A stretch of DNA of 64,000 nucleotides from Alphaproteobacteria bacterium (GTDB lineage: Bacteria; Pseudomonadota; Alphaproteobacteria; SP197). The translations under genes and the position numbers were made by a program. Below the pieces are notes generated by a model. That model did no database searches and was not told the DNA's origin. It worked only from the letters and a program-made list of their open reading frames with translations. This document shows, in pieces, positions 8,055 to 27,759 of the stretch (positions within the stretch are counted from its first letter, which is position 1; the number at the start of each line of letters is the position of its first letter). The stretch covers positions 928,001 through 992,000 of the forward strand of contig OZ219747.1 of NCBI GenBank assembly GCA_964291265.2, given 5' to 3'.

Positions 8055-8294
8055 GTGTGCCAGGCGAACTGGCGGAAGGTAGGGGGTGAAAGTCCCCTGA
8101 AACGAAGGAGTAACCAAACCACGTTTCTCCGCGAGCCGTGCGTCGGTTCCCGCGAGGGGGCAGGCGAAGCGTCGGTAGCGGTACGGATGGGCAGGGCTAA
8201 TGAGCACCGAAAAGCCCGTTGTTCGGGGTGCCGAGGCTTTCGCATCGGTCGAAGGCAACATCGCAGGCATCGATTTGGTGAGATGTCGGCGAGC

Positions 8295-8304
8295 CCCGCG
8301 GTGT
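8295..8304 (+). repeat. attL core (10-bp direct repeat CCCGCGGTGT)
   Basis: Identical to 25026-25035; marks the end of the 5' intron segment. Confidence 0.8.
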
Positions 8305-8650
8305 AACGCCAAAATCCGGTTAACAAGCCTGTACTACAATACTGCCCCACGACGCGTCTCTCTTTATCCACGTGTAACTAGACCGGAATAACCGGCATGT
8401 CAAGCCCCTCCCGCGACATAGCGTGTGTGCTAACCCAACGTTCAATGACAGCACAGTTGCATTCGAGGAAGTAATCGATAACATTCACGGCATGCACCAG
8501 AAGTCGAGGAACACCGATGATCTATGCAGAACACCAACAACTGACACACATGAGGACCATGGGGTTTTGTGTGATGGCGTTCGATGAGTCAACGGCTGAA
8601 TCACGTCATCGCCAGGCCCTTCTGTCGTCCCAGCCCCAGGGACTGAACCC

Positions 8651-9004
8651 ATGATGGAGGCGGAGGACACGAGACGCAAGGCACGCACCATCATGGCCTC
8701 CGACTCCGAGTGGGCACGGATCCGCGAGCGTGCGAAGGCTCTCGACATGCCCATCTCGCGTTTCGTCGTGCACCATCTTCTCGGCGCCACGGACGTATCT
8801 CGGCACGACACCGGAACGACACCGCCGGACCTTCCGGCCGACCTGCAGTGGCGTCTTGCCCACCACGTCATGGTGCTGGCCCGCCTCGAACGGTACCGCT
8901 TCGAGAGCGCCGGCCACGGCGAGGCCTGGGAGGCGATCGAGGAGGAGATCGACGCCCTGCTCGAGGCGGAGGGGCTGCTGGCCGGGAGGGGAGGACGGCG
9001 ATGA
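8651..9004 (+). CDS. Ribbon-helix-helix protein 1 (CopG/MobC-like)
   Basis: TIMASDSEWARIRERAKALDMPISRFVV; first of three ATGA-coupled paralogs. Confidence 0.7.
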   Translation: MMEAEDTRRKARTIMASDSEWARIRERAKALDMPISRFVVHHLLGATDVSRHDTGTTPPDLPADLQWRLAHHVMVLARLERYRFESAGHGEAWEAIEEEIDALLEAEGLLAGRGGRR

Positions 9005-9318
9005 GGCGCAACCAGCAGTTCAGCGTCAGCTGCCGTCCCAGCGACTGGGAGGCGATCCGTCAGCGTGCGGAGGAGGCCGGGATGTCGATCTCGCGCTTCA
9101 TCGTCGCCTGCGCCCTGGAGGACGAGGACGACATGCGCCTCGTGATCTCGGAGACCGAGCAGCGCGATCTCCTCAACCGGGTGAACCGGATCCTTCTGGT
9201 TCTCGAGGACCTGGCGGCGCCGCTGCCGGGCAGCGACGTCACGGCCATGGAGGCCCTGTCGTTCCTCCATCTCGCGGCCTTGGAGTTTCGCAGCGGGCGC
9301 CGGGAGTCTGAGCGATGA
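9001..9318 (+). CDS. Ribbon-helix-helix protein 2
   Basis: FSVSCRPSDWEAIRQRAEEAGMSISRFIV; RBS GGAGG and ATGA overlap. Confidence 0.7.
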   Translation: MRRNQQFSVSCRPSDWEAIRQRAEEAGMSISRFIVACALEDEDDMRLVISETEQRDLLNRVNRILLVLEDLAAPLPGSDVTAMEALSFLHLAALEFRSGRRESER

Positions 9319-9755
9319 CCGGCCGCCGCGTCGACGAGAGGGTCACCATGCACTCGATCTCGTGCAGCCGCCTGGAGAGGGAGCGCATCCGCGCCTGTGC
9401 GGAACGCGAGGGCGTGTCGATGTCGCAGTTTCTCGTCGACCGGGCCCTGAAGCGCAATCCGCCGGCGAAAGTGAAGAACCCGCCGCGCCTCGTCATCACG
9501 CCGGAGGAACAGCGGACCCTGGTGGAGACGGTCCGGGCCGTGGCCGAGACCGTGCGGACCCTGGAGGGGACGGATGAGACGCCGGGCTTCGTCGAGGCCC
9601 TGCGGGTGCTCTTCGAGGTCAGGCTCGACGCCATGACCCGCAGCGGGCATCACGGCGCCATGACCCGCTGGCTGGAGACGGTGCTGCAGGACAGCCGTGC
9701 GGCCCGCATGGAGGAGGAGGTCTACCGGCGCACCCGGTCTACAGGCGCCAGCTGA
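9315..9755 (+). CDS. Ribbon-helix-helix protein 3
   Basis: HSISCSRLERERIRACAEREGVSMSQFLV; ATGA overlap. Confidence 0.7.
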   Translation: MTGRRVDERVTMHSISCSRLERERIRACAEREGVSMSQFLVDRALKRNPPAKVKNPPRLVITPEEQRTLVETVRAVAETVRTLEGTDETPGFVEALRVLFEVRLDAMTRSGHHGAMTRWLETVLQDSRAARMEEEVYRRTRSTGAS

Positions 9756-12700
9756 TCCTGCGGTCGGGACGGGTCCACCTGACCTGCCGCTCGTCGTGGC
9801 GCGCCACGACATCCTTCATGAACTGCCGTTCGGCTTCGGTGACGCCGATGCTCTCCAGGTTCTCCCGGAACCACGTCACCATGTCGCCGGCCTGGTGCAG
9901 ACCGAGCGGGTCCTTCCCCTCGGCCTCGGCCCTCGCCACCAGGCGCCTCCACGCGGTGCGTCGTTCGAGGAAGGCCCTGCGGGCCTCCGCCATGTCGGCA
10001 TGGTCGGCAAGCCAGGATGCCACCGCCTGGCGGGAGGGAGCACGCAGGCTCGCGGTGTTTGCCAGCCGGCGTGCCTCTTTCACGAGGTCCTCGTGGCCGG
10101 GCTGGTCCGTCACGTGGCGGCCCCTCGATGCGGCGTCAACCGCATGGTTCCGGCAGGCCGTCTGCCAGTCGCCGAAGGTCTCATGGGCGGCGAGACGCTG
10201 GCGGGCAAGGCGAACCGCCTCCTCCAGGCGACGGCGGGCGGGGGCTGCGAGATGGGGATCTCTCGCCGCCTCGTCCGCATCGACGATTCCGTGGCCCAGC
10301 CGGCCACGGGCGAGGTGCGCCTCCCAGTCCTCCAGCCGGCGATGGGCGGCCTCGGCCCTCTGGCGTGCCTGGTTTGCGTCCTCGCGGGCCTTTTCGCGCC
10401 GCGCCTCGCGTTCCCTCTCGTCCTCTGCCGACAGCGCAGGCGCGGCGGGGGTTGGCTCAACCGGCCGCTCGGGCGCCACCGGGTTGGCCGGTGTTGCATC
10501 CCTGATGGCAGCCCTTCTGGTGGCAGCCCTTGTCGTCTCCGGGGCGACGGTCGCAGGCGCCACCCGTGTCAGGCGGTCGTGGCGGTCGATGGCCAGCGTG
10601 AGGCGGGATGTCATCGCCGACGGCAGGGCCGGATCGGCGACGAGCGCCCGGGCTTCCCCGATCGCGGCCTCGGCGGCGGCGCCCGAGGGCTGGCGTTCCT
10701 CCCACGAGGCGAGCCACGCTTGAGCCTTTCTCCGGGCCTCGGCGCGGGCCTCGAAGGCCCCGACCAGGCCCGCGATCCGCTGCCGGTGGTCCTCTCCCAG
10801 GTCCGGGTCCCGAAGGAGCCTCCGGGCGTTCTGCATGAGCCCGGCCGCGTCACCGTGATCGTGGACCGGCAGGCCCGCCTCGCCGGCGTCACCCTCCAGG
10901 CTCGACCAGCGCGCCTCCCAGGCCTCGGCATGATCCGCGGTCGCCTGCTGAGCAAGGACACGATCATCCTCGGCCAGGATGGCCTCGGCGCGTTGCACCA
11001 GTTCCATAAGGTCCGGCGCCCAGGCCAGGTCCACCAACGCCCGTGCCGCGGTGAGGCTTGAATCTACCTGGAAGCGCCAGCCCGCGTCGTCGTCCGGATC
11101 GACGCTCTCGCCCACCCTGCGAAGATCCGGCCGGCGTTCAAGCACATCCATGAGGCGTGTCTCGACGTGGCGGACCGCACGGGCGCTCTCGCCGGTCCAC
11201 TCGGCAGAAGCCCACTCCGCGGTCCGCCGGTCGGACGACCCCGTCATGACGGCAAGCGCCTCGAGATGCTCGATGGCCTCGGGCTCGTCGGGCGCCAGGT
11301 CGGGCTTTCTCGCGCGTTTCCAGCGCCCGACCTCCAGGGGCTCGACGGCGAGATCGCCGACGTTCTCCTTTTCCGGAATGGCGGCGGTGATCTCCGCCGC
11401 ATCGAGGCGCTCGTCCACCGCCTCCAGGGCGGTGAGGACCTCGCCGGTGTTCTCCTCCAGGGTCTCGGCCAACTGCTCCCGGTTGTCGGTGATGATGATC
11501 GCCTCGTCGCGGGCCCGGCTGATCTCGACGTAGAAGGTCTGCTGGTTGGCCAGCGGCCCGTGGCCCGAATCGAGAACCGCGATCACCTTGTCCCGGGTGA
11601 GGCCCTGGGCCGCATGCACCGTCGTCGCGTAGGCATGCGCGATGTGGCGCAGCCGGGGATCGTCGAGATCCATCTTCAGCCGACGATCGTCGTCGGTGAC
11701 GAGAACGAGTGACGTCGTCCCGATCGTCTCGATTACCGCGGTGGCCCCGTTGACGAGGTGGCTCGGGTTGTGGTTGCGCGTCCAGCGGATGCGGTCGCCG
11801 GCCCGCAGGTCGATCGAGTCGGTCTCGAAGACATCGTAGCGGAAGCGCACGTCGCTGTCGGGCTTGACATGACGCGGCTTGCCGTCGTGGTGTCCGAGGG
11901 CAAGGCGCTCGCCGTCGATGCCCGTGATGGGACAGGCGTCTCCAGACTTCACCCGGTAGTGGTAGAGGTCGTTGTGGAAGACGACGACATCTCCCTCGCG
12001 GTAGTTGCGGATCTCGCGCTTCTGGGCCCGCGTCATGGAGAGGTTGACGAGAACCGGCAGGGTGACGCTGCGCCCGTGAAGGGCGCCCTCGGCCTCGAGG
12101 CCCTCCCTCACTCGTGCGTTGATCTCCCGGCGCAGGACATGGGTGGGCGCCATCAGCGCCGTCTCCTCGCGGTCCTCCGCCTCGAGGGCAAGCCAGATGC
12201 GGGCCGCGCTGTTGCCGAGGTCCGCGTGGTCCACCTCGAGGACATCGGCGCCCAGCCGCGTCAGGGCCGCGGCAGGCTTGCCGGCGATGGCGTCGAGAAC
12301 GGCCGCCTTGAGACCCGGATTGCGCTGGCGGCGGATGTCGTCCATGACCGCCGTCGCCATCCCGGCCTGCTGCAGCTGGCGGAAGGGCTGACCCGCATCG
12401 ACCGCACGCAGCTGCCGGCTGTCGCCCACCATCACAAGACGCGCCACGCCCAGGTGCTCGGCGCTTCGCATGAGGGACCTCACCTGCTCGGTGCTGGCAA
12501 GCGACATCTCGTCCACCACCAGCACCTTGCCGGCGAAGGAGCCGGCCGTCTGGGGCGAAGGCTCCCCATGACGCGTCAGGAACCACTGCAGGGTCCGCGT
12601 CGCGATGTTGGCCTCGCGGCCCAGCGTGCGGGCCGCGCTCGACGAGGGCGCAAGGCCGATGATGGCGTCGGCCCCGGCAAGCTCCACCACCTGGCGCAGC

Positions 12701-14049
12701 ATCGTCGTCTTGCCCGTGCCGGCGAACCCCTGCACGCCGATGACCGCATCGCCTTCGCCGAGAATGAGACTGAGCGCCGCCTGCTGGCCCGCCGTGAGAG
12801 TGGCGCCCGCGAGCTTCTCGCGGACAGCCGAAGCCGGCACGATCGCCCGCGTCCGGCCCACACCCTCCTTCATGCGGCGGATGACCTCGCGCTCGGCCCG
12901 CAAGGCCCTGTCCGTGACGATCGAGGGACCGCCGCGCGAACGGATGGCGTCGACGAGGTGGCCGTCCCGGCGCAGCTGGTTAATGGCCGCGTGAATGTCC
13001 TCGAGGCCGTGGCGTCCCGGCGCATGGGCCAGGGCGCCCGCCACAAGATCGCGCACCGCGATGACCGACTGGCGTTCCTCGAGGTGCTCGGCAACGCGCG
13101 ACACGATGTCGAGCGCCGAGGGCGCCGGGCGCGGCGTCACACGCTTCGGCCGGCGGCGGGTGAGGTCGATGCCCATCTCGCTGGCGCGCTCGCGCCACAT
13201 GCCGGTCAGCACCTCGCGGTGGGGCTCGCTCTTGCGCCGCCGCGTGGCGAGCGCCGCCGCCTGGGCCGCCGCCGCATTGTAATCCCAGCCCTTTGCGTCG
13301 ACATGATCGACGATCTCCTGACGCCGCGTCGAGAAGGCGTCCAGCGTCGCCTTCGACCAGCCGGCAATCTCGAACCCTTGCACCGGTCCGATCATCGTCT
13401 CTTCGAGTTCGTAACCGAGATCAAGCAGGCGCTTCGCCAGTTCGTTGCGGTAGTGGGCGCCGATCAGCAGGCGATGGGAATGCAGCCGGCCCGTGTCGAG
13501 GCTGCGCCAGGAGCCGTCAGGACCCCGGGTCATGTTGGCGACCACACTGTGGGTGTGAAGCTGCGGGTCGAGATTGCGGCTGGCGAGATGCCGGAAGGTG
13601 CCGGCCACCATGCCCTGCGCCCGCCGCCGCTCGCGCTTGCCCGTCGCCGGGTTGTGGACCCGCGTGACGAGAAGATCCCGCTCGATCATGTCGAGCGTCG
13701 CCCGCACCGCCTCGTCGTGGGCCCTGATCACCCGCTCGTCGCCCCTCACAAGGGCCTGGAGCGACACCGACTTCGGCGCCGAGAAGGTGATGTCGACGCC
13801 CGGGCGATGCTGGTGCTCGCCGCCGCGCGCCCGGCCCAGGCGCTGGTCGGCGCCGGGGACATGGCCGGCAAGGATGGATTCGAAGACCTTCGGCTTGACG
13901 TGGCGGCCAAGACCGAGATCCCGGGCTGCCTTGCCGTGCCAGAAGCTCGCCTGGCGGTGCTCCGGTGCGTTCTTCGCGTAGTATCCGTCCTTCTCGAAGT
14001 AGCGCACCGTCCCCGAGGCGGACGTGATGGCGGTGACCGTGGCGACCAT
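9739..14049 (-). CDS. MOBF (TrwC/TraI-like) relaxase-helicase, 1436 aa
   Basis: N-terminal YFEKDGYY, DITFSAPKSVS, HUH motif DPQLHTHSVVAN, Walker A GFAGTGKTT, VVDEMS, HAYATTVHAAQG. Confidence 0.93.
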   Translation of the reverse strand: MVATVTAITSASGTVRYFEKDGYYAKNAPEHRQASFWHGKAARDLGLGRHVKPKVFESILAGHVPGADQRLGRARGGEHQHRPGVDITFSAPKSVSLQALVRGDERVIRAHDEAVRATLDMIERDLLVTRVHNPATGKRERRRAQGMVAGTFRHLASRNLDPQLHTHSVVANMTRGPDGSWRSLDTGRLHSHRLLIGAHYRNELAKRLLDLGYELEETMIGPVQGFEIAGWSKATLDAFSTRRQEIVDHVDAKGWDYNAAAAQAAALATRRRKSEPHREVLTGMWRERASEMGIDLTRRRPKRVTPRPAPSALDIVSRVAEHLEERQSVIAVRDLVAGALAHAPGRHGLEDIHAAINQLRRDGHLVDAIRSRGGPSIVTDRALRAEREVIRRMKEGVGRTRAIVPASAVREKLAGATLTAGQQAALSLILGEGDAVIGVQGFAGTGKTTMLRQVVELAGADAIIGLAPSSSAARTLGREANIATRTLQWFLTRHGEPSPQTAGSFAGKVLVVDEMSLASTEQVRSLMRSAEHLGVARLVMVGDSRQLRAVDAGQPFRQLQQAGMATAVMDDIRRQRNPGLKAAVLDAIAGKPAAALTRLGADVLEVDHADLGNSAARIWLALEAEDREETALMAPTHVLRREINARVREGLEAEGALHGRSVTLPVLVNLSMTRAQKREIRNYREGDVVVFHNDLYHYRVKSGDACPITGIDGERLALGHHDGKPRHVKPDSDVRFRYDVFETDSIDLRAGDRIRWTRNHNPSHLVNGATAVIETIGTTSLVLVTDDDRRLKMDLDDPRLRHIAHAYATTVHAAQGLTRDKVIAVLDSGHGPLANQQTFYVEISRARDEAIIITDNREQLAETLEENTGEVLTALEAVDERLDAAEITAAIPEKENVGDLAVEPLEVGRWKRARKPDLAPDEPEAIEHLEALAVMTGSSDRRTAEWASAEWTGESARAVRHVETRLMDVLERRPDLRRVGESVDPDDDAGWRFQVDSSLTAARALVDLAWAPDLMELVQRAEAILAEDDRVLAQQATADHAEAWEARWSSLEGDAGEAGLPVHDHGDAAGLMQNARRLLRDPDLGEDHRQRIAGLVGAFEARAEARRKAQAWLASWEERQPSGAAAEAAIGEARALVADPALPSAMTSRLTLAIDRHDRLTRVAPATVAPETTRAATRRAAIRDATPANPVAPERPVEPTPAAPALSAEDEREREARREKAREDANQARQRAEAAHRRLEDWEAHLARGRLGHGIVDADEAARDPHLAAPARRRLEEAVRLARQRLAAHETFGDWQTACRNHAVDAASRGRHVTDQPGHEDLVKEARRLANTASLRAPSRQAVASWLADHADMAEARRAFLERRTAWRRLVARAEAEGKDPLGLHQAGDMVTWFRENLESIGVTEAERQFMKDVVARHDERQVRWTRPDRRISWRL

Positions 14050-14116
14050 GATGGCCGAGTGTAGCGCAACATCGAGGCCACGGGCATCGTCCCGCAGACG
14101 TGATCAGGAGGCATCG

Positions 14117-15010
14117 ATGACACCTGAAGATCCCGAATCCCGGCGCATCGCCGACGAACTGAAGCGCCGCGAACGCCAGCGCCCCGCGACCGGGGCGTCG
14201 GTGGACCCCGACACCCTCAAGGCCATGCTCGAACAGTACACGGACGCTGTCGTGAAGCTCGTCGGACCGATCGAGAAGACCCTGGCGAAGAAGATCGACA
14301 CCCTCGCGGAAGCCCAGGGGGGCGTCGCCGAAAGCCTGCGCCACGAGATCAAACAGGTCCGCAAGGGTGGCGATACGGACAAGGCCGCGGCGCTGGAACG
14401 GCAGTTGTGGAAAGAGCAGCGTGCCGCCATGGAGGGGTTGTCGAACGAATTGAAGCAGAAGCTGGATACCCTGACAGAATCCCTCGACAAACGGGAGGGC
14501 GGGGTCTTCGCCGGAATTGACGACGTCGCCGAGAGCGTCAGGCCGGCAGCGCACGCACTCAAGGAGTTGCAAGAGGCCGTTGCCAGCACAGCCGCAGTCG
14601 CCGGTGATGTCGCGGCCATCCGCAAGGTGCTGGCCGGTGGAGTCCGTGTGCTCGACGATGTGGCGACCATCAGGGAGACCGTCACCCGCAACAGCAACAC
14701 CATCAATGACGTGGTGAAGATGAAGCCGGTGCTCGACGGGATTCAGACGAGCATCGGCACCTGGTCCAGGAGCATGCGCAGGCTGCGCTGGCTTGGATGG
14801 GTCGGGCTCATCCTCATCGCCCTCCTGTTCTCTGCCGGCGGAGTCGCACTGCAGAGGGAAACCGGCATCTGGACGCCGCTGGCCGACGTGGAGAACCGGG
14901 ACCGCGACGAAGTCTGGGAACGCTACGGCGAGCAGATCATCACCTGCCGCGACGCAGCACGCAAACGCAAACGGGCCATGGCCTGCACGATCGTGGACAT
15001 GGATCCCTGA
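14117..15010 (+). CDS. Coiled-coil membrane-anchored protein divergent from relaxase (C-terminus DUF6118-like)
   Basis: RBS AGGAGG, long coiled coil, one TM helix, C-terminal CRDAARKRKRAMACTIV. Confidence 0.6.
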   Translation: MTPEDPESRRIADELKRRERQRPATGASVDPDTLKAMLEQYTDAVVKLVGPIEKTLAKKIDTLAEAQGGVAESLRHEIKQVRKGGDTDKAAALERQLWKEQRAAMEGLSNELKQKLDTLTESLDKREGGVFAGIDDVAESVRPAAHALKELQEAVASTAAVAGDVAAIRKVLAGGVRVLDDVATIRETVTRNSNTINDVVKMKPVLDGIQTSIGTWSRSMRRLRWLGWVGLILIALLFSAGGVALQRETGIWTPLADVENRDRDEVWERYGEQIITCRDAARKRKRAMACTIVDMDP

Positions 15011-15033
15011 TGAAGGAGGAACGTCCGAAAGCG

Positions 15034-15528
15034 TCAGGGGGCGTCCGGAAAGAAAGGCCACGGCGCCAGGGCGCCATCGACGTGCTTGCCTTTCCAGTAG
15101 ATGAGGACGCCAAGCGGCGTGCCATTCCTGGCGACGCTGACCTCGCCGTGGACCTCGTCATCCACGTACGGTACCAACGCCTCGACGCCATTGGGCCACG
15201 AGATGGTCACGATCCCGTCAAACACGCCATCTCTGACAGGACCCGCCATCCGGTAGCCGTTGCCATCCCGACGTTCCCATGGACCGTGCAGGCTTCCGTC
15301 CTCAAACGTCACGACATAGAACCGGTCGTCCGCCAGATCGAAGGTCCATCGCCCATGAAAGACGCCACCAACATGGCTCTCCACGATGACACTGCCATCG
15401 GCAAGGGTTGCCTCCCACCGTCCCTCCTTCAGACCTTCAACGAGGCGTCCTTCGGCGCGGTTGCCCCGGTCGTCAGACAGGACACCGTCCCCATGCGCCG
15501 TGCCGCCCCAACAGTCGCCCGTCGTCAT
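15034..15528 (-). CDS. MORN-like repeat protein (start uncertain)
   Basis: Repeated G..HG.W / DG.. units (EGLKEGRW, GVFHGRW, GSLHGPW, GVFDGIV). Confidence 0.5.
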   Translation of the reverse strand: MTTGDCWGGTAHGDGVLSDDRGNRAEGRLVEGLKEGRWEATLADGSVIVESHVGGVFHGRWTFDLADDRFYVVTFEDGSLHGPWERRDGNGYRMAGPVRDGVFDGIVTISWPNGVEALVPYVDDEVHGEVSVARNGTPLGVLIYWKGKHVDGALAPWPFFPDAP

Positions 15529-15857
15529 CCAGGATTGTCATCGACATCGACCTGCTGTCCTCCGGTTACGTGATCATGCTCTGTTTGTGTCAAAACCTGC
15601 GTCATGCCTCGAGCACCAGACGCTACTTCATTCATTCCCAGCACGAAGGCCGGAGAATTTAAGGACCACATACTTGACTTAAAAATCCATGTGTCCGATC
15701 ACTTGTCATGTTTCCTTATGTTCCGTCTTTTCAAGCTTGTCGATGCGATGTCGTGTGAGTGCGAGGGCCACCTGTTCGGGTGTCGCGCCCTCGTAGCGGG
15801 TGTTGCGAACTCTGATGTCGGGTGGTCGCGGGACTTGGCGCTTGTGCTTGTCTTCGG

Positions 15858-16469
15858 TCATGGTGCGACTCCGATTAGGACCAAGGGGACGGCAGGCACC
15901 CCACGCCCCTGCCGAATGACGTTCAGCAAATCGCGTTCGTAATACGGAACCCCGGAAGACATCTCTCGTTCAAGTTCCTTCATCGGCAGTATCTCTATCC
16001 CCACGTCGATGATGTCAGACACGTAGAAGCTCAAGTGCTTGACGAATAAGTCATGTGCCACAAAAGCATATTTGCCGAACTGAACTTCGACGGCCACTCG
16101 ATCCTTCACAAAATCTGTTTGGTTGTAGGACATGATCGGCTCATGCCCTGCCTCCTGGATTGCGGTCTTTTGTTCCTGTTCGGACCTTCCGTATATTGTG
16201 CGGAGCAGTTTTTCGTCAGATGTAACCCAGAAAGTGTGTCGGCGTTGTTCCCACCCATAGAACTCGAAATGTCTCTTGAAATCGGTGTTCATGTCGGTGG
16301 GCGAGAACAGGGCGGCGCCCTTCATGTTTCGCTCTTTGGACACCTTGGTCCTATTCACGTGTGCATCCACCTTCTCGATAACACGGCGCACTTCTTCCCA
16401 CAAGTTCGGCTTGTGAACCAGAAGGTACTCTTCGCCATTCAGGTGTGAGTATCGGGCCTCAATTCGCAT
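15858..16469 (-). CDS. BglII/BstYI-family type II restriction endonuclease
   Basis: QTDFVKDRVAVEVQFGKY (D...ExQ catalytic motif), IIDVGIEILPMK, MSSGVPYYE. Confidence 0.85.
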   Translation of the reverse strand: MRIEARYSHLNGEEYLLVHKPNLWEEVRRVIEKVDAHVNRTKVSKERNMKGAALFSPTDMNTDFKRHFEFYGWEQRRHTFWVTSDEKLLRTIYGRSEQEQKTAIQEAGHEPIMSYNQTDFVKDRVAVEVQFGKYAFVAHDLFVKHLSFYVSDIIDVGIEILPMKELEREMSSGVPYYERDLLNVIRQGRGVPAVPLVLIGVAP

Positions 16470-17302
16470 CAGTGTCCTCCATTTGGCAACGCCGGATCAT
16501 AAATTGGCTTTCCCATTGGCCGGGTTTTCAACGTGCCGTCACGGAGCTTCTGGAGGCGCTCGTGGGCAATGTCCACGTAGTCTTGCACGGTATCGCATCC
16601 GAAGACATTGCGACCATGCCTCACCGCCGCGATCGCGGATGATCCGACGCCCATGTGTGGATCCAGAACTGCGTCTCCCTCGTCCGTCATAGACAGCACA
16701 AGCCTTTCGACCAACTCAACGGGGAACTGGCACGGATGGTCTGTTTTCTCGGGGTGGTTGTTCTTGACGTTCGGAAACACCCACACATCGGATGGGTTCT
16801 TGCCGTTCGGGTTGCCGGACAACTGTCCCGCCTTCGGACCCTTGAAGTGCTTCTTGCCGGGGTATTTTGCGGGCACACGGATGGCGTCCAGGTGCCAAGT
16901 GTAATTTTCATTTTTAGTCCACCAACTGATCGTCTCGTAGCGGCCTGACAGGCGTTTCGTGCAGTGCAAGCCGTGCCCGAAGTGCCAGACAATCCGATTG
17001 CGAAGTTTCAAGCCATGCGCACGAAAGACCGGATATAGGATCGTGTCCAGCGGAACGATCTCGCCGTTATCGACGTAATTCCCCACTTGCCAGCAAATCG
17101 AGCCTTGAGGATGCAGAAGGCGGACACAATCGGCAATGACCTTTTCCTGCCATTGTAGATAGTCATCCAATGATGACCGCGATTCGTAGTCCTTGCCGAG
17201 ATTGTAGGGCGGCGACGTGACGATCAATTTGAACGCGCCGTCTTTGTGCTTTGACATGAATGCAAGATTGTCCTCGCACTCGATAACGGAACGCGACATC
17301 AC
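16469..17302 (-). CDS. Site-specific DNA methyltransferase (N4C/N6A, beta class)
   Basis: TSPPYN (motif IV), HPCQFP, VLDPHMGVGSS (motif I). Coupled to the endonuclease. Confidence 0.9.
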   Translation of the reverse strand: MMSRSVIECEDNLAFMSKHKDGAFKLIVTSPPYNLGKDYESRSSLDDYLQWQEKVIADCVRLLHPQGSICWQVGNYVDNGEIVPLDTILYPVFRAHGLKLRNRIVWHFGHGLHCTKRLSGRYETISWWTKNENYTWHLDAIRVPAKYPGKKHFKGPKAGQLSGNPNGKNPSDVWVFPNVKNNHPEKTDHPCQFPVELVERLVLSMTDEGDAVLDPHMGVGSSAIAAVRHGRNVFGCDTVQDYVDIAHERLQKLRDGTLKTRPMGKPIYDPALPNGGH

Positions 17303-18297
17303 CGCGCACCACTATCGAGATCGTTCGACGCGAACAGGTCCTGATACATCAGGGATCTCCCGGCTATGCCCGCAACCGCGGCGCCCATCTGTTCGATGGC
17401 GTCCAGTTCACGGACGTTGTGACGCCCTGCAAACTCGTGGACGTCACGATCAAAATGCTTGGCACTGATCTTGTGATAGACGCCCTTGCGGGCCCGCTGG
17501 AGCATCGACCAGAAGGATTCGATTCCGTTGGTGTACGCCATGCTGCGCACGTACTCTCCGACGCCTTGGTTGACCGCTTCGCGTCCGAAGTCGCCTGCCA
17601 GTCCTCGGTAGCCGTAAGCCTCGTTTGTGTAGACTATCGCGCCTGTTTCCGTGTTCTCCCTCACGAAGCCTTGCAGGGTCGGTGCCGTGGTGTCACTGAA
17701 AACCTTCGCCAGAACGCTGTTTGATCCACGATCCTTCACGTCGTCAACCACAGTCTTGCCCACTGAACCACGCCCTGAAAGCTCTTTCCGGATCGATTTG
17801 GGCATGTTCTTGCGGAGACCGCCCATGTAGGTCTCGTCGGCCTCGACCGGGCCGGTGAAGGACGCGGCCTCGATCTTCCATGCCTCGCGGATGCGGTGAA
17901 GCATGAACCACGCCGTCTTCTGCGTGACCTTGATATCCCGATGAAGCTTCATCGAGGACACACCCTTCAGGTTTGTCATTTCGAGGTAGATGGCCAAGAC
18001 CCACTTGCGGAACGAGACCTTGGACCGTTGAAGCGCGGTGCCGGTCCTGACTGAAAAGGTCTTCCGGCAACCCCTACAGTAGTAGGGCAGGCCCGACGTG
18101 GCAGATGCCTGCATGGTCTCCGTGGAGCCACAACGGGGGCAATGACGGCCTTCCGGCCAGATCACCGCCTCGAACCACGCCGCCGCGCCGTCTTCATCAG
18201 GGAAGATGTCCCCAAGCTCCAAGATGGAGATGCCCTCGCGATGTGACTTGCCCGGTTCCTTCTGTGCCACTTCCGAATCCAATTCGTTGTTTCCCAC
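17299..18297 (-). CDS. IS1595-family (ISXO2-like) transposase
   Basis: CPRCG/CRGC zinc ribbon, KTAWFMLHRIR, VEADETYMGG, TNGIESFWS. The second catalytic Asp region reads YTNE, so it may be inactive. Confidence 0.88.
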   Translation of the reverse strand: MGNNELDSEVAQKEPGKSHREGISILELGDIFPDEDGAAAWFEAVIWPEGRHCPRCGSTETMQASATSGLPYYCRGCRKTFSVRTGTALQRSKVSFRKWVLAIYLEMTNLKGVSSMKLHRDIKVTQKTAWFMLHRIREAWKIEAASFTGPVEADETYMGGLRKNMPKSIRKELSGRGSVGKTVVDDVKDRGSNSVLAKVFSDTTAPTLQGFVRENTETGAIVYTNEAYGYRGLAGDFGREAVNQGVGEYVRSMAYTNGIESFWSMLQRARKGVYHKISAKHFDRDVHEFAGRHNVRELDAIEQMGAAVAGIAGRSLMYQDLFASNDLDSGAR

Positions 18298-18341
18298 TGA
18301 ACATGATCGATGTCCTGATTTCCGTCAAGTATATAGCCCCA

Positions 18342-18867
18342 AGAATCTGGAAGACCTCCGACGACACCGGCGCCGTGACCGTGGCGCAAGCGCGTCAACG
18401 GGCACGCGCCATGCTGGCGGCGTACAGGAACTGTGGCTCCGCAGAGCCCGGGATCGAGAATGACGCACTCTTCGAGACCGTCGCACGGGAAGTCCTTGTC
18501 CACCACGAACGGCTCTGGAAACCCGGCACCCTCGAGGTCAACCGGAAACATCTTCGCAGACAGACCCTGCCCTTCTTTGCCGGCCGCATGATCAGCGCCA
18601 CTACCCGGCAGGATGTCGCAGCATGGTTCCGCTCCCTCCATGCAACGGCGGCGGCGGCAAACCGGTCTGCGCCGGTCCTTTCTGTCATCACGCAGAAGGC
18701 CGAGGCCTGGGCTTACAGGCCGGAGAACAGCAACCTCTGTGCCGGTATCCGCCGCTACCGCGAGACCAGGCGCGAACGGATCCTCCTGCCGGAGGAGTAT
18801 CGCATTCTTGCAGATGTTCTGGCACCCCACCAGTCAAGGTGTCCCTTGCAAACTGATGCCATGCTGA
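18342..18867 (+). pseudogene. Tyrosine integrase remnant (5' piece at ~15600-15660)
   Basis: RRYFIHSQHEGRRI | WKTSDD...LFETVARE...WFRSLHAT..ANRSAPVLS..NLCAGIRRY aligns with 23778-24905. Catalytic domain absent. Confidence 0.8.
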
Positions 18868-18899
18868 TGTCAGTCTCGCGGAAAAGGAATTGCAACTAC

Positions 18900-20378
18900 T
18901 CACCCCTTGTTGGGGTCTGGTTGTCCGTAGTGCTCGTTGAGGATGTCTGCGGCCTTTCCGTCGAGGGCGATGTGGATGGCGACGTGAGGGTTGTAGCCGA
19001 GTGCGTCCATGGTGGTGAGGTAGCTTGAGCCTCGGCACCATGCCTTGGCGTGGGGCATGGTGCGGAAACATCCGGACACCTTGATCTTGACCTTTGTCAT
19101 CCTGATCTTCTGCTCTCCGGTATTATTTGTGAAACTGACATTGGGGTCCTTCATGAAGCGCAGGACGGACTTCTCGTGTTTCACGAGACGTTCATGCAGG
19201 TTGTGCGCGTCGGACTTTGCGATGCGTCCCCGTTTTCCTTTCGTCCGTGGCGGGATGTCGGGCAGTTCCTTGGCGCCCTGGGTGAGGATGGTGCGGTAGC
19301 GCTTGCGCACGGCCCGGCGGTCGGCCTCGTTCAAGGTCTTGGATGCGCTCTTGTTGACCCTGCGGGAGACCTCGCGCAGCAGGCTTTTCATCAGTCGCGC
19401 CCAGCGGTAGCCGTTGGACTCGACGACGAAGGTCATCTTGCGCAGCAGGTGGCTGCCGCACAGTTGGTGGCGGCACTGATCGTAGCCCATGTAGGCAGCC
19501 CAGCAGTCGTGGATCAGGACGCCCTTGTAGCGCGGGATGATGCCGATATCTTCGATCGCCTCCCGGCCGCGCTTGGGGTGCGGGAACTTGCACGTCAGGG
19601 TGCCGTCGGTGACGACATGGAGCCATTGGGTCTTGCCGGCGACCCGGAAGCCGGTCTCGTCGACATGCAGGGCCGGTTGTTGCAGGAGATGGGCCACGGC
19701 GGCCTCCTCCCATGATGCGAGGGCATCGTGAAAGCGCCGGACATAGCCGAGGCAGGTCGCCTCGGAGAGCTTGATGCCGGAGATCGCGTGCACGAGCGAG
19801 ACGGCACGACGCAGGGACAGCATCTGGGCGATCAGCAGGTTGATGACGAGGGCCTGGATGCTGACGCCGTACTGCAGGGGGCCCGGCATGTTGTCTGGGA
19901 ACCGGCCCTTGGTCCGGGCCCGGCACTTCGGGCATTCCTTGATCTCGGCTTCGACGCGGTGCTCGACGACTTCGAACACGATGTCGTAGAGGACGCGGCA
20001 CTCCCGGTCGACGGGGTCGACATCGTGGAGGTCGGCGCCGCAGGCGTTGCAGGCATCGACGGTGATCGTCTCCTCGATGGTGGTCGTGCGCAGGTTGTCG
20101 CCCGTCTGCTGGTTCGGCTTCGGGCCCTTGCCGTGGCTCCCGGTGCGCCTCGCGCTCTCGTCCTTGTCAGTCTGCGATGGCGGCAGACCGGAGTTCCGGC
20201 TTGTCTTACGTGTGATCTTCTCCATGAGCACGGTCAGCAACAGCTTTATCAGCATCAGCATGCCGCGGAAGAGCTCCTCGCACTCCTGGTTGACCTTGCC
20301 CTGCTTGCGGAGATCCTGGAACTGCTTCTGGAAGATGTCGGCCTCCTGGCGCACAGACGTGCCGTTCACGCTCGCCAT
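18900..20378 (-). CDS. IS66-family transposase (type A, open frame)
   Basis: KTSRNSGLPPS, CNACG/CPKC, LHVDETG, IHDCW, HQLCGSHLLR, FTNNTGEQKIR, KVSGCFR. Confidence 0.92.
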   Translation of the reverse strand: MASVNGTSVRQEADIFQKQFQDLRKQGKVNQECEELFRGMLMLIKLLLTVLMEKITRKTSRNSGLPPSQTDKDESARRTGSHGKGPKPNQQTGDNLRTTTIEETITVDACNACGADLHDVDPVDRECRVLYDIVFEVVEHRVEAEIKECPKCRARTKGRFPDNMPGPLQYGVSIQALVINLLIAQMLSLRRAVSLVHAISGIKLSEATCLGYVRRFHDALASWEEAAVAHLLQQPALHVDETGFRVAGKTQWLHVVTDGTLTCKFPHPKRGREAIEDIGIIPRYKGVLIHDCWAAYMGYDQCRHQLCGSHLLRKMTFVVESNGYRWARLMKSLLREVSRRVNKSASKTLNEADRRAVRKRYRTILTQGAKELPDIPPRTKGKRGRIAKSDAHNLHERLVKHEKSVLRFMKDPNVSFTNNTGEQKIRMTKVKIKVSGCFRTMPHAKAWCRGSSYLTTMDALGYNPHVAIHIALDGKAADILNEHYGQPDPNKG

Positions 20379-21040
20379 GACGACGCCTCCACCGCCATGA
20401 CTGCCGCCAGCACGGCGAGCCGCTCGCCTTCGGGCATCGTCCGGTAGCGCCGCGCCCAGCTCTCTGCGAGGCGCTTGATGCGCTGGCGGTCGATCGAGTT
20501 CCTGCCCGCACACGTATGCCAGTGCGGTCGGCCCGGTGCGAAGTTGAACCACAGCTTCTCGGTGACAACGCAGGCCTGGTTGTTGACCTGGACCTCGGCC
20601 GAGCGCCAGCCGGCGAGGTGCGTGTCGTAGAGCCGCGAGGGATAGCCGGAGATCATCACCTGGCAGGGCAGCGACGTCAGGATGTCGAGGAGCGCAACAT
20701 GGTCATCGTCCGTGCAGTCGAAGCGGTAGCGGCGCTGCGACCGGCGCGTCGACTGCACGTAAGGCGGGTCGCAGTAGACCAGCTCGCGGCCCTGGAAGGC
20801 GAAGGTCTCGAGAAAACGCAGGGCGCAGCCTTGGTGAAGCTCCACCGGATAGTCACAGCGGAAGGTGTCGATCGCCCGGCGGTTGAGGTCAATGCCGATG
20901 CTGCGTAGCGCCGGAGGCTTGCGCTTCATGATCGCGCCGCCCCCAAGGAACGCCTCGATGTACACGTCATGCGGCGGCATGGCCGCGACAATCGCCTGGC
21001 TCAGACCCGTCGTCGCCTTCGATCCATACCATGCCGCCAT
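20366..21040 (-). CDS. Dam/D12-class DNA adenine methyltransferase (IS passenger)
   Basis: YGSK, YIEAFLGGGA, YCDPPY, MISGY, TEKLWFNF. Stop codon overlaps the transposase start region. Confidence 0.88.
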   Translation of the reverse strand: MAAWYGSKATTGLSQAIVAAMPPHDVYIEAFLGGGAIMKRKPPALRSIGIDLNRRAIDTFRCDYPVELHQGCALRFLETFAFQGRELVYCDPPYVQSTRRSQRRYRFDCTDDDHVALLDILTSLPCQVMISGYPSRLYDTHLAGWRSAEVQVNNQACVVTEKLWFNFAPGRPHWHTCAGRNSIDRQRIKRLAESWARRYRTMPEGERLAVLAAVMAVEASSWRA

Positions 21041-21383
21041 CAATATCTCCGACGCAATCCGCCCCGATGGCCTGCATGTAGAGCGCCCCTCCTACAATGT
21101 CAAGCGCATATCTCCAGAGGATTGGAAAGGCAGCCAACGGAACACGCTCCACCGGACAGAACGGTTGACACGCAACCTCGGCGCGGGGTGCCGGATCACG
21201 TCGCAGCCCCCTCCCCATAAGGCCGGAACGTGGAGCTGAAGCCGAAGATCGATCCGCTTCTTGTCAGTCGGAACACGCACATCCGATCATCGGCAGCGAG
21301 CCAGTGAAGGCGGCAAGAGAAAATGCCGGATCCGAACTCGTCAGGAAAAACCATTCGTCATCAGTAGGGGGGTGAGTAGTTAC

Positions 21384-22139
21384 AAGGAATCTTCACAAGG
21401 GCACGACCAGAATAATCGCTCCACAGCACACCATCAAAGCCGCACAAACTTGGTTGATTAAGAACAATCTGATACAGCATCTCCCGCACTTCAGAACACT
21501 CAACAGGGGGATAGCAGTTCAACAACAGCAACCACCGTTCAACGAAGTTTCCGTCCTCCCAAGGGAACTTCTTGCACTTGGTCTCCAAAGCTCGTTCCAA
21601 CATGCTTGAAGTCGCCGAGAGGATCTCCGATACTCCAGGGCTGGTGTAAATTTTCCAGGAACATTCTGGACCACCTGGTTTGAGCATAATGCCAGGACGC
21701 TTCAGCGTTTTATCACCATTTCTTTCAATATGTTGGCAAACAAGTGCCCTCGTTTTAGTCTTCCATTTTTATCGAAAAGTACTGCATTTTGATTCAGGGG
21801 ATCATCTGGCTCAGGCCCGAGAAGGCCGAGAAATAAGATGTAGTCACGCGTACGCTGATTGCGTGTTATTCTATCAAGTTCTTCCCCGTATTGGCGAAGC
21901 GGAACAATCAAGTCTTTTGATGACATGATCTTTTCTTTATTATAACCCATGGCCTCTTGGTAAACCCTGGTTACCTCAACACCCCATCGATCACCATTTT
22001 TCATTTTTACCACAATATCCGGTGGATCATTCGGGTGCACTCGCACTTGAAATCCGGACAATTCTTGGGCCTCCAGGTATTTGCGCAACAACTCGCAGGA
22101 AAATTCTTCGTCCGAAATACCTTCTTCTTCGTCCGACAT
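21384..22139 (-). pseudogene. Low-GC hypothetical gene, PD-(D/E)XK-like, frameshifted and clipped by IS66
   Basis: DPPDIVV...WGVEVT motif. Split into ORFs 21702-22139 and 21361-21687. The last codons lie beyond the IS at ~18870-18891. Confidence 0.45.
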
Positions 22140-22517
22140 ACCTTCGTATCCTCCTCGTAATTAGTAACCCTTGCTCTCCGACAATCCATGCCACGGCACT
22201 CTGGTAGGATCAACCGGTTGTCACCACTTCCATACCATGAAGACTTGCCTTTGGTCAATAGGATGCGATGAATAGTGTTCAAGCAAGGAGAATTTCATCC
22301 AACGTGACGTTCTTCCGCTCTGCCAGAATACAGGCCAAGTGACGTAGTGCCCGTGTCGTCGACACTTTGAAGTGGGTGCGGGTCTCGTACAGGATAATGT
22401 GTTTTTCGGTAATGCCCTTGTGTCTTGCAATGTTCGCAGTTTGTTAGGAATCCACCCACCTTTTTTCGTGCACCCCGCCGGTTGGCGCCTGACGATCCGA
22501 CAACACGGTTTCCGTCG

Positions 22518-22622
22518 TGCTCTGTGCGCTTCAGTTTCGGTCGATACTCGACAGACACGGAAATCGAGCAAGAAGCTGACATGGCCCTCGGGGTGCTCGA
22601 GTCCCTGGCAGACCGGACTTGA
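22518..22622 (+). pseudogene. C-terminal remnant of a cysteine desulfurase (IscS/DndA-like)
   Basis: SVRFSFGRYSTDTEIE resembles the conserved IscS C-terminus; nothing upstream matches. Confidence 0.5.
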
Positions 22623-22644
22623 CGATGGCGCAGCCCCATGACTG

Positions 22645-23781
22645 TCAGGCAGTCGCGTCCAACCCGAGCATGTCCGAGATTGCCGTTGCGATCCGCTCGG
22701 CAGCGGCTTCGGTTTCCCGGTCGCCCGTGTGGGCGTAGCGCAGGGTCATGGTCGTCTGCGCGTGACCGAGGAGCCTTGCGACGACGGGAAGCGGCGTTCC
22801 CTGCATGACGGCATGGCTGGCGAATGTATGGCGCAGATCATGGAGCCTGACATCCTCGATGCCGGCCTCCCTGCGGACGACGTACCACAGTGGGAGATCG
22901 TCGTTGAGCGGCCGTCCGGGATCGCGGGGGGACGGGAAGACGAATGCGCTGTCGCCGGGAAGACGGCGCTCGATGATGGCCTGGGCCGGGGCATTCAGGA
23001 CGACCGTGCGCGGACCGACCTTGCTGTTCCGGAGCCGGAGACTGTTGCCGAGCACCTCCTGCTTCTGCAGGCGGACGATCTCGTTCTTGCGACACCCGGT
23101 AAGCATGAGAAGCCGGATGATGTCGATCTGCATTCGCCGTGATCGACTGATCCCCTGGAGATTGTCGTGGCGGTCCAGCACGTCATGCAGCCGATGAAGT
23201 TCCTCGCGCGAGAGGAAGCGGGTGAGTTTCCTGCGCGGGTTGGGTTTCACCGACCTTGCCGGGTTCGCTGTGATGTGGCCGCAGGCCATGGCGTGATTGA
23301 GGATGTGTCGAAGGACCTTCAGGCATGAATTGGCCCCGCCGGGCGCCGTTCTGCTGTAGTCGTCGAACCAGCGGTGCACCATGGCGGGCGTGATCTGGTC
23401 CAGGCATCGGGAACCGAATGTCGGCAACAGGCGGGCTTGAAGGCACCTGTCGCGCCACTGGATCGTTCCGGGCTTGCACCGACGGACCCAGGAATCGCGC
23501 CATGCGACAGCAAAGTCCCTGAACAACGGGACCGAAGCCCTGTCGTCGTGACCGGCTGCCAGTCTTTCGAGGCTCTCCTTGCGGGCCACCTTGACCGTCT
23601 TGAAGGCGACCGGACCAAGCGATGTCCTTCTTCCGCCGTCGATGTGAACGAAGCCGCGGCCTCCCGACGGGTGGACCCGAACCCCGAGAGAGGGAACGAA
23701 GGTATCGCGAAGCGTGTACTCCCGGGATCGCGGCTTGAGGTTGCGCACGAGGGTATCTGTCAGCTTCTTCCTGCGGTTCAT
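22645..23781 (-). CDS. Tyrosine recombinase/integrase 2
   Basis: Arm-binding N-terminus; TGCRKNE, SKVG, HDLRHTFAS, LLGH, RYAH. Confidence 0.93.
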   Translation of the reverse strand: MNRRKKLTDTLVRNLKPRSREYTLRDTFVPSLGVRVHPSGGRGFVHIDGGRRTSLGPVAFKTVKVARKESLERLAAGHDDRASVPLFRDFAVAWRDSWVRRCKPGTIQWRDRCLQARLLPTFGSRCLDQITPAMVHRWFDDYSRTAPGGANSCLKVLRHILNHAMACGHITANPARSVKPNPRRKLTRFLSREELHRLHDVLDRHDNLQGISRSRRMQIDIIRLLMLTGCRKNEIVRLQKQEVLGNSLRLRNSKVGPRTVVLNAPAQAIIERRLPGDSAFVFPSPRDPGRPLNDDLPLWYVVRREAGIEDVRLHDLRHTFASHAVMQGTPLPVVARLLGHAQTTMTLRYAHTGDRETEAAAERIATAISDMLGLDATA

Positions 23782-24905
23782 GCATCAGTCCTTCCGAGAA
23801 CGGAGCCCACGGCCTCTGCCGCTTCGGCCATCATGCCGTCGGCGAGATGCGTGTACTTGAGAGTGGTGGCGGGATCGTTGTGACCGAGCAGTCGACCGAC
23901 GGTGAGAATGTTCTCTCCGTGCATGACGGCAAGGGAGGCGTAGGTGTGACGCAGGTCGTGAAGGCGCACATCCTCCAGGCCCGCTTCGGAGCGCACACGC
24001 ATCCAGAAGTATCCGATGGCGCCTTGCGAGATGGACCTGGCTGTGGTCCTTGGCGATGGAAACATCCAAGGCGAACGACGAGGCAACGTTGTCAGGATCT
24101 TCCGGGCGGGAGCCGACAGCCAGACCATGCGTGGCCCCGTCTTGGAATCCGCGAGATGGAGATGGCCCTCGCGGTAGTCCGCCCAGCGCAGCGACAGGAT
24201 CTCCTGGCTTCGGCACCCGGTGAGGAGCAGGAGGCGGATGATCGCCACCTGTGCCGGAAAGTGCGCTTCATGGTCCTGCAGCACGCGCCCGAGCCGGCGG
24301 ACCTCCTCCACGCAACAGAAGCGCTCCCGTCCCTGCCGTCGATAGCGCCTGATGCCCCGGCACGGATTGCTGCCTTCAGGCCGGTATCCGTAGTCCTCGG
24401 CACGGGCCATGATGACCGAGAGAACCGGCGCCGACCGGTCGGCTGCGACCGGCGTCGCGTACAGGGAGGCGAACCACTCCTGAACGTCACCGCGCACGAT
24501 CTCCGCGATCTGGCGTCCACGGAACCACGGCAGGATCTGATTGCGGTAGTAGTTCCGGTTGACCTCGAGTGTGCTGGACTTCCATGTTCGCCCGTACCGG
24601 CGAAAGACCTCCTCGGCGACCGTTTCGAACAGGGTTTCGTCGGATGAAGCGGGAGCGTCGCTTCTGATGGCGGTCAGCATGGCTTGTGCGCGTTGTCTGG
24701 CCTCGGCGAGACCGATCCCGGCAGCGTCACCGACGATCTTCCAGATCCTCTGTCCATCATGCTGGGTATGGATGAAGTAGCGCTTGCGCCCCGATGGGTA
24801 GACACGGATGCCGAATCCCTTGAGATGGGCGTCACGGGTGTCCCGGGCAGCCCTGCGCGGACGAAGGGCCTTGATGCGGCTCTCGGTGAGATGTTTTGCA
24901 GCCAT
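23778..24905 (-). CDS. Tyrosine recombinase/integrase 1
   Basis: Arm-binding N-terminus; TGCRSQE, SKTG, HDLRHTYAS, LLGH, KYTH. ATGA-coupled to integrase 2; starts ~120 bp from attR. Confidence 0.93.
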   Translation of the reverse strand: MAAKHLTESRIKALRPRRAARDTRDAHLKGFGIRVYPSGRKRYFIHTQHDGQRIWKIVGDAAGIGLAEARQRAQAMLTAIRSDAPASSDETLFETVAEEVFRRYGRTWKSSTLEVNRNYYRNQILPWFRGRQIAEIVRGDVQEWFASLYATPVAADRSAPVLSVIMARAEDYGYRPEGSNPCRGIRRYRRQGRERFCCVEEVRRLGRVLQDHEAHFPAQVAIIRLLLLTGCRSQEILSLRWADYREGHLHLADSKTGPRMVWLSAPARKILTTLPRRSPWMFPSPRTTARSISQGAIGYFWMRVRSEAGLEDVRLHDLRHTYASLAVMHGENILTVGRLLGHNDPATTLKYTHLADGMMAEAAEAVGSVLGRTDA

Positions 24906-25025
24906 GGAGTCTCCCTCGAATGCGAGTTGCAGGAACGGGAGATTCCGTTCGCGCAATCGCCCGCAGTTGCAGGATCGAGAGAGAAAATACAGCGTTAGTT
25001 CAGTTGTTTAGCACCACAGGTGCGT

Positions 25026-25035
25026 CCCGCGGTGT
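25026..25035 (+). repeat. attR core (CCCGCGGTGT)
   Basis: Identical to 8295-8304; intron domain I sequence resumes here. Confidence 0.8.
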
Positions 25036-25144
25036 CGGAGAACCCATGCACGTCCGCACGCCTTCTGTTGGGACCCTGGGAGGTCTTCGAACTATCCCGC
25101 CTGTCGTGGCGGGACCGTGTAGGGAAAGGAGAAAGCCGAAGCCT

Positions 25145-27661: not shown

Positions 27662-27759
27662 AATCGAGACCAAACGAGTTTACCAGCTCTTTCTCAGACG
27701 ATAGTCAGCAAGACCCAAACCAACCAAAATCAGCCATCACCGCACGGCCGAACGCTTAC

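Follow-up and report, generated by a model that had tools for sequence, protein, structure and literature searches.

The window analysed here is a stretch of 64,000 nucleotides of an alphaproteobacterial genome, termed G000 (assembly GCA_964291265.2, contig OZ219747.1, positions 928,001 to 992,000), in which an element of 16,741 bp, termed E1, splits domain I of a group II intron at CCCGCGGTGT. The intron spans positions 8055–26704 of the window and lies antisense in an IS66 transposase gene, the 3′ part of which (7227–8054, minus strand, Pfam DDE_Tnp_IS66) and the 5′ part of which (26705–27673, minus strand, domain match) flank it; empty IS66 sites are present elsewhere in G000. The 5′ part of the intron (8055–8304, plus strand) contains domain I up to the insertion, and the 3′ part (25036–26704, plus strand) contains an open reverse transcriptase (RT)/maturase frame (to 26632) and domains V and VI (DV/DVI, 26631–26704); both parts are 100% identical to intact copies. 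The sequence CCCGCGGTGT occurs at 8295–8304 and again at 25026–25035, and identity ends there with no extension on either side. These two copies, both read on the plus strand, are the junctions of E1: attL, on the left or "RHH end" (RHH, ribbon–helix–helix), and attR, on the right or "integrase end". Each consists of a 6-bp overlap, CCCGCG, followed by GTGT, a geometry common to the whole family described below.

Rfam model RF02005 (group-II-D1D4-6) matches positions 8089–8317 with 152 bits, and in its alignment the 10-mer falls on the 3′ strand that closes a helix of domain I, opposite CGGGG (8224) and CACCG (8205), with which it pairs, just as an earlier note made from the sequence had proposed. 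With the insert removed, the intron (1,921 nt) finds 13 uninterrupted copies in G000 at 99.7–99.9% identity, and the insertion core corresponds to intron nucleotides 241–250. It is because these empty copies exist that both junctions are fixed exactly; a 10-bp repeat by itself would be weak evidence. Precise insertion into a conserved domain I stem between identical 10-mers is thereby confirmed. The host has all the expected features of a group II intron (5′ GUGYG, domain I, RT/maturase, DV/DVI, and 3′ AY). The earlier note considered both the RT frame and DV/DVI to be intact: the former is indeed open and scores 355.6 bits with TIGR04416 (cut-off 300), and the latter is recognisable with RF00029 at 34.7 bits, under the gathering score of 40. 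The insertion would block the splicing of this intron copy, and exact excision would restore it.

Contigs assembled from four read runs, which belong to one study and one of which is possibly the source of the window, were compared with window positions 7900–25900. The RHH-end junction is crossed by contigs of runs X1 and X3, the X3 version being about 3% diverged and devoid of an IS66-like passenger found in E1. The empty intron joint is also present in these contigs, as expected since the intron is multicopy.

Several observations concern the intron itself. Most of its copies are antisense at a single site of the IS66 transposase gene, and four layers are nested at window positions 7227–27673: IS66, the intron, the integrative element, and IS66-like and IS1595 passengers. 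About 15 derivatives without an open reading frame (ORF) are scattered across G000 (~650 nt, ~94% identical, RT deleted; e.g., L259, C2 857514–858171; Lnnn labels denote single loci or ends); they were likely moved in trans by the RT of the intact intron. A 5′ fragment of the intron at C2 3954004–3954247 ends just past the same GCGGTGT and is not followed by a family element; at C2 3567918–3568259 there is an intron of more distant kinship (~69% identity).

Next to attR, two tyrosine recombinase genes lie in tandem on the minus strand. These are int2 (22645–23781, 378 aa) and int1 (23778–24905, 375 aa), which both match Phage_integrase and have intact R-H-R-H-Y catalytic residues; int1 also has an Arm-DNA-bind_3 domain (PF13356 at 35 bits against a cut-off of 27), for which int2 gives no match. 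Between attL and the first gene, the left arm of the element (8305–8650, plus strand) has the motifs CTCTC (8358), TGTCAA (8398) and GTTGCA (8456), which are conserved in the family and are probable arm-type sites. The right arm (24906–25025, plus strand) has GTTGCA and GAGAG motifs and an oriT-like hairpin, GCACC-ACA-GGTGC (25011–25023), conserved in the family and similar to IR2 of plasmid R388 (oriT, origin of transfer). The left arm is followed on the plus strand by three small genes. The first (8651–9004) has no Pfam or NCBIfam match, is RHH-like by our reading, and has homologues in the same place throughout the family; the second (9001–9318) and third (9315–9755) encode NikA-like RHH proteins (PF21983, E 1.6e-10 and 2.9e-6). 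Then comes, on the minus strand, a gene for a MOBF relaxase-helicase of 1436 aa (9739–14049; TrwC and AAA_30 domains; NF041492 over cut-off, with a MobF score of 276.6 bits against 100). The two integrases beside attR and the relaxase of the earlier note are thus borne out, as are two of its three RHH genes by family matches and the third by resemblance.

Ten tandem recombinase pairs are present in G000 (E2–E8 and E10 are the other family members or pairs in this genome), and eight of them end in AGCACC-RMA-GGTGCG, with zero or one further nucleotide, then six free bases, then GTGT. These eight right ends carry seven different 6-mers; a perfect 10-bp repeat is found at the far end in six elements (E1, E2, and E4–E7), and with one mismatch in E8. 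E2, whose int1 is 96% identical to that of E1 and whose cargo and left end are different, has the same 6-mer, CCCGCG, and interrupts another copy of the intron at exactly the position used by E1. The host intron copies of E1 and E2 differ at 17 flanking and 2 intron positions, so that one is not a recent duplicate of the other. E3, with a 99% identical integrase, lies outside any intron, just downstream of hutU, at the 6-mer CCCGTG; congeners diverge after hutU at this location. E4–E8 each have a 6-mer of their own: E4 lies in the methylase gene that belongs to an IS66-like repeat, E5 in a gene that we read as encoding a helicase, E6 in a transposase repeat, E7 in a short repeated sequence, and E8 in a gene present once. 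Altogether, five of nine G000 elements lie in sequences present at least three times, compared with 13.5% of GGTGT sites (p 0.004; 4/8, p 0.015, when E1 and E2 are counted once), an excess that selection for dispensable sites could also produce. As to the intron, it is the origin of 27 of the 39 CCCGCGGTGT sites that are free in G000; an element tagged with CCCGCG would therefore enter the intron about 70% of the time without any recognition of the intron.

Other pairs in this genome deserve mention in their own right. E7 (52 kb; C2 2108116–2160239) contains the intron-borne E2, so family members nest in each other. E10, a distant tandem pair (~42% identity, C2 3749633–3751821), has no hairpin-GTGT end, which suggests a sister family with other ends.

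The same end (a conserved hairpin, six free bases, and GTGT) was found in 11 of 22 congeners and in none of 38 other relatives, and a reversed control gave no matches. It also occurs in metagenome-assembled genomes of other Alpha- and Gammaproteobacteria, according to a scan of 26 of 64 parts of GTDB, which gave at least 120 stretches. From 160 distinct motif sites, 126 with an int1 homologue upstream were kept, and the 34 without one, owing to a short flank or a chance match, were dropped. Among these 126 ends there are 116 distinct 6-mers, the last position of which is G in 106 ends, and the preference at this position (−1) tracks the clade; no clear motif is apparent in the host DNA that flanks the 10-mer on its two sides. 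The commonest hairpin loop is GAA (61/126). GTTGCA is present in 115 of the 126 right ends (4.5 after shuffling); among 27 left ends, 26 have a GTTG-type motif and 26 a CTCTC-type motif. Hence both arms carry GTTGCA and CTCTC/GAGAG motifs, a pattern that would fit arm-binding recombinases.

In the congeners, a perfect upstream repeat was found for 20 of 55 ends against 2.1 expected, and it precedes the first RHH gene, in those cases in which this gene was located, by 324–533 bp; for the other 35, none was present in the DNA searched, which ranged from 24 bp to 38 kb per end. When the far end was placed independently, by means of the first RHH gene, 28 elements gave 23 identical pairs of 10-mers, two with a one-base difference, one with a three-base difference, and two without a call, i.e., 3 mismatched among the 26 resolved. 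For 12 of 26 joined flanks, a homologue with a single core spans the junction. A supposed exchange of ends between L045 and L087 found no reciprocal support and was dropped. In L241, the family end is followed by a sequence resembling the start of a tRNA gene, and the same holds for L052, a motif site that lacks an integrase.

Of 8,000 protein clusters scored, at least 4,118 lie at E ≤ 1e-50, a figure that may include paralogues of the second position; the family is therefore large, and a single genome has up to 15 copies. A metagenome scan with int1 gave six loci, all at 32–65% identity, and a viral collection gave no motif matches. The open literature covered has no account of this family, nor of any element with a tyrosine recombinase that inserts into an RNA domain of an intron; such islands may be listed in the TIGER/Islander database. 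Site-promiscuous clades are mentioned in PMC12884075 and PMC12424338, in passages that do not describe the present family. The family, with its probable GTGT-anchored targeting by a carried overlap, is apparently undescribed.

The earlier note had proposed that E1 is specialised for the intron and had asked whether homologues recur in its domain I. The ends were examined by blastn with the window intron and tblastn with its RT, a combination that distant or oppositely oriented introns would escape; at least 1 kb of downstream flank was available for 108 of the 126 ends (less for 18). Only E1 and E2 have the intron or its RT downstream, and the remaining 124 ends have neither. Moreover, in the congener genomes G005, G010, and G012, five of five close intron homologues keep the identical 10-mer uninterrupted, whilst these genomes hold 15, 10, and 1 family ends elsewhere. 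Specialisation for the intron is not supported; insertion into it would be one predictable outcome of targeting by a carried overlap. What survives of the idea of a multicopy landing pad is its general form, in which any repeat matching the carried 6-mer would serve.

If an element carries its 6-mer from site to site, related elements should resemble each other there. Indeed, in 14 independent pairs with at least 90% identity, 29 bases match at positions −6 to −2, compared with 18.6 by permutation (p 0.006), and three pairs are within one mismatch (0.26 expected). Two siblings in another genome, G186, share GCAGAG at unrelated sites (86% identity). In a further genome, G330, the left inverted repeat of an IS256-like element contains five ends with TGAGTG, and the right one contains two with GACGTG; among the three complete pairs of the left repeat, int1 is 100% and 93% identical. 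Siblings thus repeatedly occupy copies of one repeat. In C2 and C4 of G330 (L290–L298 and L300–L314), family members are found in both terminal inverted repeats of this multicopy IS256-like element.

The direction of the crossover can be read from mismatched cases. In L089, where the homologue of the interrupted gene reads AQNYGV, the integrase end has the 6-mer of the host, and the RHH end has a foreign one that is three bases off; E8 agrees weakly with this polarity. Likewise, two left ends in G330 have GCCT or GCGT where the insertion sequence (IS) has GTGT. Together, these cases place the crossover 5′ of the 6-mer, which speaks against both target duplication and relaxase-mediated insertion after GTGT.

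For enzymes of this class it is an established rule that the overlap must be identical irrespective of its sequence, as was shown experimentally for the integrase of mv4 (excerpt of 10.1101/2023.11.06.565760). In the same way, the 6-mers described here would be identical at both ends and yet vary freely because crossover over a 6-bp overlap needs a match between donor and target, and it follows from such a rule that an element is predicted to carry the 6-mer of its last site. The explanation that we consider probable is that E1 lies in the intron because its recombinases need only GTGT and a match to the carried 6-bp overlap, and that the intron offers the most matches. In the proposed mechanism, excision would produce a circle in which the hairpin, the 6-mer, GTGT, and the left arm are joined. 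Arm-type sites on the two arms would hold both recombinases, and the crossover would take place at the 5′ edge of the 6-mer. A strong preference for exact matches would leave room for an occasional mismatch, after which the RHH end would have the carried 6-mer and the integrase end that of the host. The tag would drift over time, and a lineage would stay on a repeat only while its tag matched. Finally, the same junction would double as the oriT of the relaxase, with transfer borrowed from a helper.

Several points weigh against this explanation. Most pairs at 90–95% identity differ in their 6-mers at a near-random level, and the siblings L135, L160, and L211 (~96% identity) differ at three of six positions, which means that the tag must change quickly. 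Of the three close pairs, L136/L206 may represent the same host site. Two of the five left-repeat ends in G330 are short fragments, and IS-driven rearrangement therefore contributes there. The polarity is drawn from one strong case, L089; L079 is polymorphic, and a TGAGGG case in G330 is ambiguous since an IS tip with that variant exists. The p values overstate the support, because family kin are not independent in any of them. No recognisable far end of E3 was found within the 200 kb searched. Neither excision nor a circle junction was seen for E1, no circle joint being present among the joints listed (15 of 71) in the contigs of the four runs, and no VirB4 or TrwB-like gene was found in G000.

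One alternative is that homology is unneeded at first entry, in the style of Tn916, CTnDOT, or the SEs, and that perfect repeats arise later by re-excision with the local 6-mer and re-entry at the same site. The three-mismatch footprint of L089 and the frequency of close siblings with unrelated 6-mers speak for it, and SEs and Tn554 do carry a 6-bp footprint (PMC10214605, in excerpt). However, repeated entry into the copies of one repeat is improbable without matching, given about 30 intron cores among 10,319 GGTGT sites in G000, and mismatched ends are just 3 of the 26 resolved cases. This alternative is unlikely.

A true target-site duplication, with the likeness of siblings due to a clade-specific sequence preference of the proteins, would account for the perfect repeats (23/28), the 116 different 6-mers, and the preference by clade at position −1. 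It would not account for L089 and G330, where the RHH end has a foreign 6-mer or 4-mer. Moreover, gap filling is not part of standard tyrosine-recombinase chemistry. Little credence can be given to such a duplication.

It could also be that insertion is the work of the MOBF relaxase and not of the recombinases, through strand transfer at a GTGT that resembles nic; TrwC is able to put transferred DNA into nic-like targets (excerpt of PMC3264647). The right end does closely resemble IR2-nic of R388, GCGCACCGAAAGGTGCGTATTGTCT/ATAG (Table 1 of PMC4814116, in excerpt), and relatives in Shewanella lie in a putative nic. However, if the cut were made 3′ of GTGT, the RHH end should have host sequence, which is the opposite of what L089 and the GCCT/GCGT ends show. 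In addition, the right end follows the clade of the integrase and not of the relaxase (E1 and E2 have a common right end and relaxase domains that are 61% identical), the Shewanella elements have no relaxase inside, and the identity of the 6-mers is left unexplained. Insertion by the relaxase is thus very unlikely. Last, a dedicated parasite whose integrase pair evolved to recognise domain I of group II introns, although in keeping with the entry of two different intron copies at the same base, the conservation of the 10-mer in related introns, and the presence of the junction in the ~3% diverged strain of run X3, is largely refuted at the level of the family and hardly credible, given the 99% identical integrase at a non-intron site, the 2 of 126 ends in the intron, the empty congener copies, and the fact that intron and element share nothing past the 10-mer.

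The resemblance to a transfer origin bears on where carried-overlap targeting may have come from. Judging by the sequence, hairpin-N6-GTGT is a putative relaxase nick site. Distant tandem pairs (35–41% identity) occur on plasmids of cultured strains; six of the eight examined have N6-GTGT at a distance of 142–170 bp ahead of the first integrase, and in several of these it is preceded by a hairpin with another sequence, whereas the pairs of V. europaeus and Sphingobium have no GTGT at the expected distance. The pair and its cargo (6.8 and 11 kb) lie between exact copies of the 10-mer CGTGGGGTGT, a repeat geometry like that of the main family, in plasmids of Shewanella baltica BA175 and S. oneidensis MR-1, and three MOBF plasmids of S. 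baltica represent the empty site, with a hairpin followed by CGTGGGGTGT near traI. For four plasmid pairs with N6-GTGT outside Shewanella, no matching far repeat was found. By the F-type motif, the Shewanella insertion point is a putative nic. At the Shewanella loci (L385, 19833–26676; also L392, L393, and L394, near 2866), a tandem-recombinase element with restriction-modification or other cargo interrupts the putative oriT of a MOBF plasmid, and sister plasmids provide empty alleles; the end of the element copies the upstream motif of the host oriT.

These findings point to an ancestry of the family as oriT parasites, in which the circle junction would be both attP and oriT. A wider proposal, tentative and somewhat less than evenly probable, is that the twin-recombinase family descends from parasites of plasmid transfer origins, with GGTGT as the nic motif and attP as oriT, and that its main clade freed the 6-bp overlap as an inherited, self-rewriting address. 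Lineages would then lock onto a matching multicopy element (the group II intron, IS256 inverted repeats, or a plasmid oriT), and the pair would be a natural integrase retargetable by six donor bases beside a PAM-like GTGT.

Comparison with known systems places E1, by its sequence features, among integrative mobilisable elements (IMEs). It has its own integrase (two Phage_integrase genes), precise ends with a direct repeat and an empty allele, and a relaxase; mating-pair genes were not found, with no type IV secretion genes among the ORFs scanned and VirB4 and TrwB searched genome-wide. Some IMEs target the oriT of another element, as the Shewanella relatives appear to, and streptococcal IMEs with a tyrosine integrase integrate in the oriT of integrative and conjugative elements (both from the excerpt of PMC5357655). 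Unlike known IMEs, the present family has two full tandem recombinases and no fixed attB gene, GTGT alone being constant and the overlap free between members. Heterobivalent integrases of the lambda type, including mv4 Int (10.1101/2023.11.06.565760, in excerpt), similarly have an arm-binding domain, motifs on both arms, and an apparent need for an identical, free overlap; in contrast, the family has a one-sided target motif of 4–5 bp instead of two inverted core sites, more than 100 natural overlaps, and two recombinases. By its N-terminal DUF4102, and as judged by the domain match alone, int1 belongs to the IntSXT subgroup, which is defined by this arm domain (excerpt of PMC8138268).

The SEs, GInts, RITs, and Tn554 also have more than one tyrosine recombinase, and a 6-bp spacer can stay as a one-sided footprint; however, they need three or four proteins, are reported to be non-mobilisable, and target few sites (PMC10214605, as excerpted). 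The present family has two recombinases of similar size, a MOBF module, and 6-mers that in most cases are the same at the two ends (23/28), rather than the one-sided footprint and lack of mobilisation genes of SEs and GInts. No ORFs corresponding to their core genes Tfp/GinC and Srap/GinD lie between or beside the two adjacent recombinases, no profile search for Tfp or Srap having been run. RITs have three recombinases and terminal inverted repeats of ~34 bp, and the family has two recombinases and asymmetric ends. Tn916/Tn1549 and CTnDOT likewise use many chromosomal sites by means of a tyrosine recombinase and a short, variable crossover region, but they tolerate heterology as a rule, leave unlike coupling sequences (the present family has 3 mismatched cases among 26 resolved), have one integrase, and encode conjugation (excerpts of PMC2817482 and PMC12084037). 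As for R388 oriT and TrwC, the hairpin GCACC-loop-GGTGCG(T), followed by a GT-T-type tetramer, and a MOBF relaxase with RHH helpers are common to both (PMC4814116 and PMC3264647, in excerpt), whereas the distance from the hairpin to the end of the tetramer is 10–11 nt here instead of 8, the spacer is unconstrained, and the site is also a recombination junction. In short, E1 works like an IME with an overlap rule of the lambda type and a breadth like that of Tn916.

Between the relaxase and the recombinases, E1 has a gene for a coiled-coil protein (14024–15010, plus strand, sub-threshold matches only) and, on the minus strand, a type II restriction-modification cargo (15858–17302; a BglII-like restriction endonuclease and an N4/N6 methyltransferase by domain matches), in agreement with the defence cargo of the earlier note. 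These are followed by an IS1595-family transposase passenger (17299–18297, minus strand, NF033547 over cut-off) and a decayed fragment of another family integrase (18282–18851, plus strand, 49% identity to int1 over 190 aa). The multicopy IS66-like passenger (18884–21383, no strand assigned) is a later insertion, missing in X2 and X3 contigs (joint 18883–21384); it has an ORF resembling a D12-class adenine methyltransferase, and the same repeat is the target of E4. Elsewhere, between the integrase pair of E3 and the window intron, AbiEi-like and low-GC genes (window 4533–5444, and L001 beyond 920312) may be cargo of E3, whose far end would then have been lost to IS insertions.

In conclusion, the insertion at the intron, the N6-GTGT geometry at more than 100 unrelated sites, the near-universal identity of the 6-mers, and the repeated occupancy of one repeat by siblings replace the one-off story of an intron parasite with a general rule. 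This rule would explain how integrative elements of low specificity come to nest repeatedly in other mobile elements without acquiring a new specificity. The family interrupts genes and moves restriction-modification cargo. If the mechanism holds, it would link parasitism of oriT to promiscuous integration and would provide a pair of recombinases directed to its target by six bases of the donor together with an anchor of four bases.

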